Virus record (IMG/VR): IMGVR_UViG_2737471849_000004
Coordinates: 1-39,239 of that record
DNA length: 39,239 nucleotides
DNA from: a virus
Lineage: Duplodnaviria > Heunggongvirae > Uroviricota > Caudoviricetes
Strand: one strand, 5' to 3'
The position numbers and the translations under genes were made by a program. Shown piece by piece: positions 25,617 to 29,196 of the stretch (position 1 is the stretch's first letter; each line of letters starts with the position of its first letter). The notes under the pieces were generated by a model. It did not search any database, was not told the origin of the DNA, and saw only the letters and a list, made by a program, of their open reading frames with translations.

Positions 25617-25805
25617 ATGGCACGAACAATGCTCTATAAGCCGGGCAACATGATCACCTGTGGTCAGGTTGCTGTCGATTACATCATTGTTGATGACGAA
25701 GAAGTTAAATCTCACCTGAAAAAAGGCTGGGTAAAAACTCCTGAAGAAACCGCAACGAAGCATAAAGTGGCTAAGGCGGAAGAAGATGGCGAAAACGAAG
25801 GGTGA
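25617..25805 (+). CDS. Hypothetical small protein between coat and gp4 genes (about 62 aa)
   Basis: Internal ATG of track ORF 25578..25805 preceded by GGAG. Confidence 0.35.
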   Translation: MARTMLYKPGNMITCGQVAVDYIIVDDEEVKSHLKKGWVKTPEETATKHKVAKAEEDGENEG

Positions 25806-26247
25806 TCTCGTTCTAAAGGCTTTACGAAAAGCCGGACTGTATTCCAATGCCACGTTGACAGATGCTGACCCTCAGGCAATTGAAGATGCCATTAATGACC
25901 TCGAAGACATGATGGCAGCATGGCAGGCTAAAGGTATCGAGCTTGGGTATCAGTTTGCTGATACAGAAAACGGCATCATGCCGTTACCTGACGATGATTC
26001 AGGTATCCCTGCATGGGCAAATGATGGCGTCGCTTTGAAACTCGCTGTGCAAGTGTGCATGGATAACGTCATTCAGCCGTCGGATGCTCTCCTGACCGCT
26101 GCTGACAGCGCATATCAGACAATCTGTATCGCTTTAACCAAAATACCACCACTTGAGCGACGAAATGACATGCCTCGCGGTAGTGGTAACAAAAGCGCGT
26201 TTACGTGGAATCGGTTTTACATCGAGAAAGATGATCCGAGTACGTGA
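25786..26247 (+). CDS. Head-completion / portal-binding protein (P22 gp4-like)
   Basis: 153 aa; KTKGDLVLKALRKAGLYSNATLTDADPQAIEDAINDLEDMMAAW resembles P22 gp4; canonical position. Confidence 0.7.
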   Translation: MAKTKGDLVLKALRKAGLYSNATLTDADPQAIEDAINDLEDMMAAWQAKGIELGYQFADTENGIMPLPDDDSGIPAWANDGVALKLAVQVCMDNVIQPSDALLTAADSAYQTICIALTKIPPLERRNDMPRGSGNKSAFTWNRFYIEKDDPST

Positions 26248-26256
26248 GGTGAATAA

Positions 26257-26361
26257 ATGCCGATTCAGCAACTTCCGCTTATGAAAGGTGTCGGCAAAGA
26301 TTTCCGAAACGCCGACTACATCGACTATCTGCCAGTGAATATGCTGGCAATTTTGATATAA
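26257..26361 (+). pseudogene. Orphaned 5' fragment of gene 10 (34 codons) displaced by the HNH insertion
   Basis: Encodes [31 protein letters not shown] then stops where AT-rich inserted DNA begins; the same motif restarts at 26930 with different codons. Confidence 0.65.
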
Positions 26362-26397
26362 TAAGTACATGAAAAATCGAAACTTTAAGGAGTAGAT

Positions 26398-26982
26398 ATG
26401 CTTTCTGAGAATGCTAAAGATATACCTGGATTTGAAGGTGTTTATGCCGTAACAGAAGATGGCAGGGTGTATTCTCACTCACGTGTTGTTAAGGCTGCGC
26501 ATGGCAGCACGCAACTCAGAAAGGGGCGCTGGTTAAAGCCTAAAATAAATCAGGGAAGGGTGCTTTATAATATCGGAGCAAAATGGACTTTTGCCCATCG
26601 AATCGTTGCAATGACATTCCTGCCAAATCCTGAAAACAAGCCTCAGGTAAATCATATTGATGGCAATCCACTCAATAATAACGTCAATAATCTTGAGTGG
26701 TGCACTCAAAGCGAAAACATCAAACATGCATACGCCACAGGATTAAAGAAACCAATCAAGTTTTTCGGAACCAAGCACCCAAAACACAAGTTGAGTGATG
26801 ACGATGTTCTTGCAATCAAGTCATCAAAAGAGAGCTTGTCAGTAATTGCGGCTAAGTACGGGATATCTAAGACTTGGGCAAGTAGGCTAAAGCGTGATGC
26901 TAACTGGGTTCATATAAAGGTTGATTCCAATGGCAATACAACAACTACCACTAATGAAGGGATTAGGGAAAAGTGCGGTTAA
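26398..26982 (+). CDS. HNH homing endonuclease (NUMOD4 + HNH_3-like), free-standing
   Basis: 194 aa; GFEGVYAVTEDGRVYS (NUMOD4-like) and HIDGNPLNNNVNNLEWCTQSEN (HNH); own AAGGAG RBS; AT-rich. Confidence 0.8.
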   Translation: MLSENAKDIPGFEGVYAVTEDGRVYSHSRVVKAAHGSTQLRKGRWLKPKINQGRVLYNIGAKWTFAHRIVAMTFLPNPENKPQVNHIDGNPLNNNVNNLEWCTQSENIKHAYATGLKKPIKFFGTKHPKHKLSDDDVLAIKSSKESLSVIAAKYGISKTWASRLKRDANWVHIKVDSNGNTTTTTNEGIREKCG

Positions 26983-28348
26983 TGCTGATTATATAGACCA
27001 ACTTCCAGTCAATCTTTTAGCTACGCCCAAGGAGGTGTTGAATTCATCGGGATATCTTCGCTCATTCCCTGGCATTGCCAAACGCTCTGATGTGAACGGT
27101 GTATCGCGCGGAGTCGAGTACAACATGGCGCAGAATGCTGTTTATCGCGTGTGTGGTGGCAAACTGTATAAGGGCGAAAGTGAGGTCGGTGATGTTGCCG
27201 GAAGTGGTCGCGTATCAATGGCGCATGGTCGAACATCACAGGCGGTTGGCGTTAACGGGCAACTGGTCGAGTATCGTTATGATGGCACGGTTAAAACCGT
27301 CTCAAACTGGCCTACAGACAGCGGATTCACGCAGTATGAGTTAGGCTCAGTCCGCGACATTACGCGCTTACGTGGGCGTTATGCGTGGTCAAAAGACGGA
27401 ACTGATTCATGGTTCATCACTGACCTTGAAGACGAATCACATCCTGACCGTTACAGCGCACAATATCGCGCCGAGTCTCAGCCTGACGGCATCATCGGCA
27501 TAGGAACATGGCGAGACTTCATCGTCTGCTTTGGTTCATCGACGATTGAATATTTCTCCCTGACTGGCGCAACCACCGTTGGTGCTGCTTTGTATGTCGC
27601 ACAGCCATCACTGATGGTGCAGAAAGGCATTGCCGGAACCTACTGCAAAACGCCGTTTGCTGATTCGTATGCGTTCATCAGCAATCCGGCAACAGGTGCG
27701 CCGTCTGTGTATATCATCGGCTCTGGTCAGGTATCACCAATCGCCAGCGCGAGCATTGAGAAAATACTACGCTCCTACACTGCTGATGAACTGGCTGATG
27801 GCGTGATGGAGTCTCTGCGATTTGATGCGCATGAGTTGCTGATTATCCATCTTGCGCGCCATGTTCTCGTGTACGACGCATCTTCAAGCGCCAATGGTCC
27901 GCAATGGTGTGTGTTGAAAACTGGCTTGTATGACGATGTGTACCGCGCTATCGACTTCATTTACGAAGGCAATCAGATAACGTGCGGCGATAAGCTGGAA
28001 TCCGTGACCGGGAAATTGCAGTTCGATATCAGCAGCCAGTACGACAAGCAGCAGGAACACCTGCTGTTTACTCCGTTGTTCAAAGCGGATAACGCCCGGG
28101 TGTTCGACCTTGAGGTTGAATCTTCAACTGGCGTTGCGCAGTACGCTGACCGCCTGTTCCTCTCTGCAACCACTGACGGCATCAATTACGGGCGTGAGCA
28201 GATGATTGAGCAGAATGAACCGTTCGTTTACGACAAACGCGTTTTGTGGAAACGAGTAGGGCGCATCAGGAAAAACATTGGTTTCAAATTGCGCGTTATC
28301 ACGAAGTCACCTGTCACTCTGTCTGGCTGCCAGATAAGGATTGAGTAA
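26930..28348 (+). CDS. Head-completion / tail-hub protein (P22 gp10-like)
   Basis: About 472 aa from [14 protein letters not shown]... (track ORF starts at 26921); the 5' end overlaps the 3' end of the HNH gene. Confidence 0.8.
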
Positions 28349-29196
28349 TGGCGGATTCGAATCTCAATGTGCCGGTAATCATTCAGGCTACACGGCTAGA
28401 CACATCAGTCCTTCCACGCAATATCTTCTCGCAGTCGTATCTGCTTTACGTTATCGCACAGGGCACTGATGTTGGTAACGTGGCTAACAAAGCCAACGAG
28501 GCCGGACAGGGCGCTTATGATGCACAGGTCAGGAACGATGAGCAGGATGTGATTCTCGCTGACCATGAGCAGCGAATTTCTGCTGCGGAAGCAACGCTTG
28601 TTAATCATGAGGAGCGAATCAGCCAGGCAGAATCAACTCTTCAGGACCATGAAACACGAATAGCTCAGAATGAAAGCGATATTTCGTCGCTTGACACAAG
28701 AGTTCAGTCGCTGGAATCGCAGGTTTCAGACCATGAAACGCGCATCGATGCTCTGGAGTATGCCACTACTCGCAAGAAGTCAGAGGTTGTTTACTCTGGC
28801 GTATCTGTAACCATACCGACAGCGCCGACCAACCTTGTTAGCCTGCTGAAAACGCTCACGCCGTCATCCGGCTCGTTGGCACCATTCTTCGACACAGTTA
28901 ACAACAAGATGGTTGTGTTCAACGAGAACAAAACCTTGTTCTTCAAGCTGTCGATCGTCGGGACGTGGCCCAGCGGAACCGCCAACAGGTCAATGCAGCT
29001 AACCTTTTCCGGCTCTGTTCCTGACACACTGGTAAGCAGTCGCAACTCGGCGACAACAACCGATAACATCTTGTTAGCTACGTTCTTCAGCGTGGATAAA
29101 GACGGCTTTCTTGCCACAAATGGCAGCACGTTAACCATTCAGTCAAATGGTGCGGCGTTTACTGCCACAACCATCAAGATAATCGCGGAGCAGTAA
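28348..29196 (+). CDS. Tail needle (P22 gp26-like) with extended C-terminal knob
   Basis: N-terminus [43 protein letters not shown] and heptad-repeat coiled coil resemble gp26; 282 aa with a beta-rich C-terminal domain. Confidence 0.75.

Follow-up and report, generated by a model that had tools for sequence, protein, structure and literature searches.

A probable homing-endonuclease cassette within the coding sequence of gene 10 in P22-like phages

The DNA analysed in this work, called the window throughout, is the complete 39,239-nucleotide stretch of the IMG/VR virus record IMGVR_UViG_2737471849_000004 (positions 1 to 39,239, one strand), which carries a P22-like tailed phage. Its gene 10, a head-completion gene that is essential in P22, contains an insertion, and the block at about 26348–27049 is likely to be a mobile homing-endonuclease cassette lodged in the gene 10 coding sequence after codon 31. 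Four parts can be assigned to this presumed cassette, namely, the stop codons that end a displaced piece of gene 10, a leader with a strong ribosome-binding site (RBS), a gene for an HNH endonuclease of the I-HmuI type, and a foreign start codon with the first 40 codons of gene 10. Because the foreign copy joins the resident gene body in frame, gene 10 would stay functional without an intron, an intein, or splitting of the gene. An earlier interpretation, made from the letters of the window without database searches (hereafter, the sequence-only reading), had described this region as the footprint of an HNH gene inserted at the start of gene 10. This description was confirmed, since relatives free of the HNH gene are uninterrupted and the same order (fragment, HNH gene, divergent gene 10 start), with both junctions identical, was found in 40/40 copies analysed. 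These copies represent 33 distinct haplotypes and originate from Escherichia coli prophages, IMG/VR contigs, and Salmonella phage UPF_BP1; nine further copies recovered in later scans show the same arrangement.

Structure of the interrupted gene 10 locus

The uninterrupted state is provided by phages Kapi1 and HZ41, which have no HNH gene and in which gene 4 runs directly into an intact gene 10. Alignment with Kapi1 gave 97% identity for window positions 25786–26348; positions 26929–27600 align once more to that Kapi1 gene 10 start, with 89% identity. The window thus contains two counterparts of a 93-nt Kapi1 segment, the upstream one native and the downstream one divergent. The left junction is placed between positions 26347 and 26350. 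The right boundary of the cassette lies in a block identical to native alleles (27050–27066), which directly follows the last foreign base at 27049. In this way, the comparison with intact P22-like phages suggested by the sequence-only reading defined the insertion at approximately 26348–27049, within which native codons 32–40 have been replaced while codons 1–31 are left stranded upstream. The divergent stretch, ending at codon 40, reaches nine codons beyond the end of the duplication at codon 31. At the same time, an upstream micro-ORF unaccompanied by an endonuclease gene, which would have spoken against an insertion, was absent from 5,426 complete E. coli genomes. The GC content falls from about 0.50 to 0.37–0.41 across the insert, bearing out the AT-rich character ascribed to the DNA that follows the fragment, and the block 26350–27052 has 40.7% GC against 46.9% for the whole window.

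The displaced fragment begins with an ATG at 26257, nine bases past the end of gene 4, which opens a 34-codon open reading frame (ORF; 26257–26361) consisting of 31 gene 10 residues and the additional residues ILI (ATT TTG ATA). The gene 10 sequence ends after ...AATATGCTGGCA, and translation would stop at two consecutive TAA codons (26359–26361 and 26362–26364). The orphaned gene 10 N-terminus recognized earlier is real, as this fragment is 97% identical to Kapi1 over 93 nt and matches positions 1–28 of the Pfam Phage_stabilise profile (E = 7e-11); RefSeq labels it a gene 10 pseudogene "missing C-terminus" and the adjacent gene an "HNH endonuclease." Among the 40 copies, the fragment occurs in 20 haplotypes, and its variable sites (codon 2 CCG/CCT, TTC/TTT, CGA/AGA, AAC/AAT, and CTG/TTG) are those that vary in intact HNH-free alleles. 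The fragment of UPF_BP1 is of a distinct native allele type, that of our locus L051. Judged by these shared polymorphisms, the displaced fragment is native and carries the variation of local native alleles.

The left junction coincides exactly with a terminator-like hairpin. Its predicted folding energy is −10.9 kcal/mol (z = −2.7), whereas uninterrupted Kapi1 DNA reaches −4.8 kcal/mol. The stem is lengthened by codon 31, invariably GCA in the fragments and in most intact alleles GCT. Downstream of the junction, positions 26350–26397 are 100% identical in 13 copies compared directly, with a few single-base variants in the wider set; from 26374 on, this leader is common to related HNH genes located between genes 10 and 26 in other phages. 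A promoter scan of the cassette returned no candidates, and the junction hairpin is the sole terminator-like site there. No Rfam family was matched between 25700 and 27400, and hence no intron.

The HNH gene is preceded by AAGGAG at 26387–26392, 5 nt ahead of its ATG, and its product matches NUMOD4, an N-terminal DNA-binding region (E = 1.3e-8, residues 7–53), and HNH_3, which contains the HNH (beta-beta-alpha-metal) motif (E = 1.9e-10), above the Pfam cut-offs; the proposal of a free-standing HNH gene with its own RBS is in agreement with these data. All of the 18 homologues collected also match NUMOD4. The I-HmuI structure (PDB 1U3E) was matched with E = 1e-8 by the single protein and with E = 1.4e-29 by a profile of the 18 homologues, the alignment ending at about residue 137 of the profile. 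Residues H86 and N107, invariant in the 18 homologues, align with the catalytic histidine (H75) and the metal-binding asparagine (N96) of I-HmuI, and the position corresponding to I-HmuI D74 is occupied by Asn throughout this HNH subfamily. A C-terminal helix-turn-helix DNA-binding domain is hinted at by weak matches of some homologues to Pfam families of this kind, which gave none to the HNH protein of the window. By the profile and structure matches, the protein belongs to the I-HmuI family without being intron-encoded.

The HNH ORF is intact in 39/40 copies. Its variants comprise 12 synonymous and 8 non-synonymous changes; of these 8, six lie outside the gene 10 overlap and two within it. 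Since there are about three non-synonymous sites per synonymous site, this 12:8 ratio of variants indicates purifying selection on the HNH gene. The last ~20 residues of the protein have no counterpart in the homologues and arise by read-through into the gene 10 start. No in-frame fusion links the HNH ORF to gene 10, whose start codon, ATG 26930, is located inside the HNH ORF in another frame, with an overlap of 53 nt; RefSeq also starts gene 10 at the equivalent position in identical prophage copies. A weak AAGG ribosome site for gene 10 is found at 26917–26920, again within the HNH ORF. From this start, the full-length gene 10 product matches Phage_stabilise over all 469 profile positions (1–469; E = 1.6e-298). 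Coordinates of all of these features are collected in Table 1.

Table 1 Features of the interrupted gene 10 locus and its flanks in the window
Feature	Position	Strand	Evidence
Gene 4 (tail accessory factor gp4), native left flank outside the cassette	25786..26247	+	Pfam P22_Tail-4, E = 7e-41
Displaced native gene 10 5' fragment, codons 1–31 with native start codon and ribosome site	26257..26349	+	
Seven-pair hairpin UGCCAGU/GCUGGCA at the fragment end, then AUUUUGAUAU	26330..26359	+	Terminator scan, fold
Cassette left end: ILI read-through codons, tandem TAA stops, AAGGAG leader	26350..26397	+	
Predicted free-standing I-HmuI-type HNH endonuclease gene, 194 aa	26398..26982	+	NUMOD4 + HNH_3
Substitute gene 10 5' end, start codon and codons 1–40, 41% GC	26930..27049	+	
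Native gene 10 body, joined in frame to the substitute end	27050..28348	+	Pfam Phage_stabilise
Gene 26 (tail needle, Sf6-type knob), context	28348..29196	+	Pfam Phage_tail_NK, E = 1.5e-117

Beyond the insert, the stop codon of gene 10 overlaps the start of gene 26 at 28348, and no second HNH gene is present between genes 10 and 26 in the window. In addition, several 500-nt windows between 35001 and 39000 have a GC content of 0.38–0.41, as low as that of the cassette.

Origin of the substitute gene 10 end and spread of the cassette

The substitute 5' end differs from the native one at 46/123 nt. Thirty-one of 40 codons are changed, 23 of them synonymously and 8 with an amino-acid replacement; the two serine codons move to the other codon family (AGC AGC to TCA TCG). 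Aligned in register, the two copies of the gene 10 start in the window are identical at 59/93 nt (63%), with 80% identity at the protein level, and fail to detect each other even by short-word blastn. At the same time, the substitute end is nearly invariant across the cassette copies. It was found only together with the HNH gene, with the exception of one chimeric allele (E. coli AVS0578); of the 5,426 complete E. coli genomes, the 18 that have the HNH gene are also the 18 with the divergent stretch.

Searches for the source of this sequence were made in several collections. By tblastn and sensitive blastn, 50,697 phage records yielded no match above 73% nucleotide or 85% amino-acid identity outside the cassette, and one genome per species from GTDB contained nothing above 49% amino-acid identity to the HNH protein. 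A codon-independent pattern of the substitute peptide gave 26 matches in IMG/VR, all of them cassette copies. The same kind of peptide search in the Joint Genome Institute (JGI) metagenomes gave nine matches, of which eight were cassettes and the ninth was a divergent P22-like gene 10 lineage without an HNH gene (L211:952-2370; 81% amino-acid and ~71% nucleotide identity, 56% GC). This lineage shares five of the eight substitute amino-acid states (L12, S15, Q24, L29, and V36) and is the sole natural allele found with the amino-acid signature of the substitute N-terminus. As the donor itself, L211 was rejected owing to its 56% GC and only 72% nucleotide identity; the actual donor was presumably AT-rich. 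Because five of the eight amino-acid changes are natural in L211, the substitute end was imported rather than mutated in place, and it is an allele type of another gene 10 lineage brought in with the HNH gene. Accordingly, what the sequence-only reading had said of a full-length gene 10 that restarts with different codons stands as to the restart, here placed at ATG 26930, and the codons; the recoding it assumed gives way to import.

The cassette was detected in the phage records as Salmonella phage UPF_BP1 (NC_047875), a deposited plaque-forming isolate with a named host; in 18 of the 5,426 complete E. coli genomes, 901 of which contain a P22-like gene 4/10 junction; in 27 IMG/VR viral contigs; and in 8 JGI metagenome contigs. 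Counted by locus, 22/958 (2.3%) of gene 10 places in E. coli carry it. An insertion of this kind had been called unusual, and this judgement needs qualification, as it is not a one-off but a recurrent state of P22-like gene 10 loci. As UPF_BP1 is a phage isolate, the arrangement is compatible with viability. The RefSeq gene 10 of this phage (L001:2283-3593) lacks the first 108 nt, having been annotated from an internal ATG rather than from the start at L001:2175, and the displaced fragment is absent from the annotation.

Nucleotide diversity is about 0.006 across 26347–27066 versus about 0.061 in the gene 10 body, and the step occurs exactly at 27067. Five gene 4 upstream types, with proteins only ~40% identical, carry the cassette, as do many needle types. 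Upstream diversity is not lower at cassette loci than at HNH-free loci, and the two groups are undifferentiated; hitch-hiking of upstream DNA with the cassette was considered, and no signal of it was seen. The divergence of the gene 4 types precludes recombination between them, which leaves the 93-nt fragment as the sole nearby homology on the left by which the cassette could change background. On the other side, polymorphisms in the gene 10 body form a mosaic on a fine scale, and recombination is therefore clearly frequent.

Decayed forms were encountered as well. In the prophage of E. coli ES5 (L010), a 1-nt deletion at the window equivalent of 26633 splits the HNH ORF, and in locus L007, a one-base insertion at the equivalent of 26311 frameshifts the displaced fragment; no other copy among the 40 is broken. 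A metagenome copy (L210, 906-2812) contains an IS21-family element inside the HNH ORF, encoding a 340-aa transposase with an rve domain and a 260-aa IstB_IS21 protein. Finally, E. coli AVS0578 (NZ_CP124374, L176:2450-2570) has neither the HNH gene nor the fragment, and its gene 10 has native codons 1–19 followed by substitute codons 20–40. This is an HNH-free allele retaining the altered sequence; it may have originated by cassette loss through recombination between the fragment and the substitute end or by break repair directly from a substitute copy. With these alleles, the stages expected of the life cycle of a homing element (intact, frameshifted, IS-split, and HNH-free chimera) are all present.

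Two cassette copies per genome were found in four genomes, which correspond to two independent E. coli lineages, where about 0.03 such genomes would be expected by chance (22/958 loci positive and ~55 genomes with two loci); this over-representation is suggestive only. The prophage remnant beside cscK/cscB in STEC308 (L177) and Eco_23-3571 (L015) is defective but has retained an intact cassette; its remaining genes are gene 4 and a needle gene, both truncated, together with gene 10 and a tailspike gene. A full prophage with the cassette is present in STEC308 as well, and ET729 is another genome with two copies. For STEC308, gene conversion from one copy to the other was considered and not adopted: their left flanks are identical but uninformative, as the gene 4 ends of this type are invariant everywhere.

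Proposed mode of transfer and competing explanations

During a mixed infection or the infection of a lysogen, the HNH enzyme would nick or cut an uninterrupted gene 10 at a target located at or just to the right of the insertion point. Repair would then be templated by the cassette-bearing genome, where homology is provided on the left by the 93-nt fragment and on the right by the gene 10 body from about 27050. As a result, the HNH gene and the substitute end would be copied in, and the recipient's own 5' fragment would be stranded upstream. The target would include the junction or codons 32–40 (...CTGGCYACACCCAAAGAAATCCTGAACAGCAGC), because this is the sole native sequence missing from cassette carriers, and a site wholly within codons 1–31 would persist in the fragment. 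In carriers, the target is altered, as the native junction and codons 32–40 are gone and the rest of the gene 10 start is represented by the divergent substitute; like the sequence-only reading, we infer that the recoded stretch is the cleavage site, now made immune. The 63% identity between the two copies would hinder deletion by repeat recombination. Moreover, the only usable start of gene 10 and its weak AAGG are buried inside the HNH ORF, which would penalise simple deletion of the cassette. The whole architecture probably had a single origin, in which an AT-rich donor contributed its HNH gene and the adjacent gene 10 start, the left join being illegitimate and the right one homologous.

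Several points weigh against this interpretation. The nuclease activity, the cleavage site, and biased inheritance are all inferred from sequence, and no donor phage with the substitute 5' end in its own gene 10 was found in the phage records, GTDB, IMG/VR, or the JGI metagenomes. Some I-HmuI-family enzymes also cut DNA bearing their own gene, and immunity of the substitute sequence is not guaranteed. The right boundary is the same in every copy, with no gradient of co-conversion tract length, a pattern equally compatible with homing and with a single origin and subsequent ordinary recombination. The diversity contrast would show recent spread rather than active homing, because the high recombination among P22-like phages could alone place a young 700-bp block on many backgrounds. 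The rarity of the cassette is unlike an efficient drive at equilibrium. Finally, the two-copy statistic rests on two lineages, and one of the STEC308 copies belongs to the csc-adjacent prophage remnant.

The main rival explanation is that the cassette is a passive passenger, which arose once by illegitimate recombination with an AT-rich phage and was then distributed by ordinary homologous recombination, the HNH protein being inactive or acting elsewhere. The uniformity of both junctions and of the right boundary, without variable co-conversion tracts, the absence of an upstream hitch-hiking signal, the presence at only ~2% of loci, and the clearly frequent recombination in the mosaic gene 10 body would all be natural in this case. 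It is nevertheless rather unlikely, given that the HNH ORF is intact in nearly every copy, with an excess of synonymous variants and conserved catalytic residues, and that genomes with two copies are over-represented. In addition, two related HNH genes at the other end of gene 10 are also tied to foreign AT-rich gene 10 sequence, as active nucleases would be.

The second explanation to be weighed is a local duplication of the first 31–40 codons at the time of the HNH insertion, followed by in-place recoding to escape cleavage. Such selection for divergence would account for the change of nearly every codon that can be changed synonymously (23 among the 32 conserved residues). However, it would require the 46 substitutions to have accumulated in 123 nt while the diversity of the adjoining 580 nt of the cassette is only about 0.006, and none of the analysed copies represents an intermediate haplotype. 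The amino-acid states shared with the natural lineage L211, the GC content of the substitute end, which equals that of the HNH gene, and the extension of the divergence nine codons past the duplicated part likewise argue for import, and recoding in place is very improbable.

HNH proteins encoded near morphogenesis genes can be packaging factors in cos phages, and a paper on lactococcal phages names such a class HrdP; by analogy, the HNH gene could serve a housekeeping function in the phage, for instance, in association with terminase as in HK97-like cos phages. This possibility carries hardly any weight, as ~98% of P22-like gene 10 loci have no HNH gene, the gene does not adjoin the terminase gene, and the protein is of the I-HmuI type, which the lactococcal paper classes apart from the packaging-type (GVE2-like) HNH proteins. 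P22-like phages package their DNA by a headful mechanism and not at cos sites. An assembly or annotation artefact, or chance ORFs, for which only the shortness of the fragment could speak, can be dismissed, because the same structure is present in dozens of independent assemblies of isolates, viromes, and metagenomes.

Related cassettes and comparison with known systems

The mobile-cassette interpretation can be extended to the other end of gene 10. Two other HNH genes, whose products are 55% and 43% identical in amino-acid sequence to the HNH protein of the window, are located between genes 10 and 26 in relatives (for example, L042:2641-3546, L061:2641-3534, and L002:2586-3491; also L008, L012, L035, L037, and L038). 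They share the leader AAATCGAAACTnAAGGAGTAGATATG and the N-terminus MLSENAKDI with the HNH gene of the window. These genes are always tied to a foreign-type last ~340 nt of gene 10 (34.5% GC; 59% nucleotide and 67% amino-acid identity to the native segment), and no stranded fragment accompanies them. Some phages carry such a junction HNH gene and the present cassette together. Taken at face value, these arrangements suggest that a single family of nuclease cassettes is rewriting gene 10 at its two ends.

The 3' end of the HNH ORF (26919–26936; GGTTGATTCCAAT) matches 11/13 bases of GGCTGATTCGAAT (L042:3537-3560), a sequence that spans the gene 26 start downstream of the related HNH genes. The shared leader, together with this short match noticed after the fact, hints that the present cassette may derive from one at the gene 10/26 junction.

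The standard view is that homing endonuclease genes within a gene survive only if an intron or intein removes them from the product. Free-standing ones of phages are placed by this view between genes or, in rare cases, within a gene that they divide into two functional halves. The locus described here points to an alternative at the DNA level, in which a replacement gene end and a start codon arrive with the element itself, and it does so in a tractable phage group (P22, Sf6). It is possible, and we propose it tentatively, that this is a third route into essential phage coding sequence besides introns/inteins and gene splitting, in which a cassette with a diverged replacement end keeps the stranded fragment as a homing arm and enforces its own retention by a start codon buried in the nuclease ORF, with related HNH cassettes rewriting both ends of gene 10 (5' 120 nt and 3' 340 nt) in enterobacterial P22-like phages. 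The alleles found would form a natural series for the study of a homing life cycle, from uninvaded loci, through intact cassettes on many backgrounds, to frameshifted, IS-disrupted, and HNH-free forms with presumably resistant sequence. Additionally, the cassettes account for local mosaicism of gene 10 and for mis-annotation, such as the RefSeq pseudogene calls and the truncated start of UPF_BP1, and phylogenies of gene 10 should be built with the foreign ends masked.

A literature search returned no description of this insertion in P22-like phages, the papers that mention UPF_BP1 doing so in passing, and no phage case that combines a displaced fragment with a replacement gene end. Individual features, however, can be compared with several known systems. 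The enzymes I-HmuI and I-HmuII of Bacillus phages SPO1 and SP82 (PDB 1U3E for I-HmuI) are phage-borne members of the same family, with NUMOD4 and HNH_3 and the aligned histidine and asparagine. I-HmuI is a strand-specific nicking enzyme. Its gene lies within a self-splicing group I intron, whereas the HNH gene of the window is free-standing and gene 10 would be repaired at the DNA level by the substitute 5' end.

Free-standing endonucleases of the T4 type (SegG and MobE) perform intronless homing with co-conversion of flanking markers (PMC2988022). The likeness to the present locus includes a promoter-less cassette in an operon, sporadic presence, and a diverged flank that is co-inherited. It also extends to the endonuclease ORF, which contains signals for expressing the essential gene downstream and is thereby favoured for retention; in T4, these signals are embedded promoters (PMC2988022). 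The T4-type genes sit between host genes and have no duplicated fragment, whereas the present gene is inside a coding sequence and the 5' fragment persists. Closer in position are mobE in nrdA of Aeromonas phage Aeh1 and mobA in gene 60/39 of T4, where a gene is split, both halves are translated, and the product is reassembled (PMC2988022). In these cases too, a free-standing endonuclease gene is found inside a phage coding region; however, both halves work there, while here the upstream piece is redundant and the full-length protein would be made from the replacement start.

The closest architectural precedent is provided by fungal mitochondria (Allomyces macrogynus atp6; Glomus atp6, atp9, cox2, and nad3), where an endonuclease ORF is accompanied by a foreign copy of the C-terminal end that joins the resident core of the gene in frame, the native end persisting as a stranded duplicate (PMC3630166). 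The inserted copies have 64–81% DNA identity and encode nearly identical protein, the native duplicates match those of close relatives, and two of the four Glomus hybrids (atp6 and nad3) have the endonuclease ORF and the host gene in phase (PMC3630166). The identities between the two copies of the window are 63% for DNA and 80% for protein. In the fungal hybrids, the C-terminal end is duplicated, whereas here it is the 5' end, with mirrored polarity, in a tailed phage host, and with an HNH gene that has its own start in another frame. The Allomyces endonuclease is of the GIY-YIG type; the paper on the fungal hybrids speaks just of endonucleases. Because in the phage it is the 5' end that is replaced and the nuclease has its own start, the substitute must supply both a start codon and a ribosome site, and owing to this mirrored design, the present cassette is not filed as a member of the fungal mitochondrial hybrid type. 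A further parallel is known for phage 21 and e14 in icd, where the integrated prophage restores the interrupted gene with a diverged replacement end of its own and strands a fragment. There, an integrase acts on the 3' end of a bacterial gene, whereas the present element would employ an endonuclease inside a gene of the phage itself.

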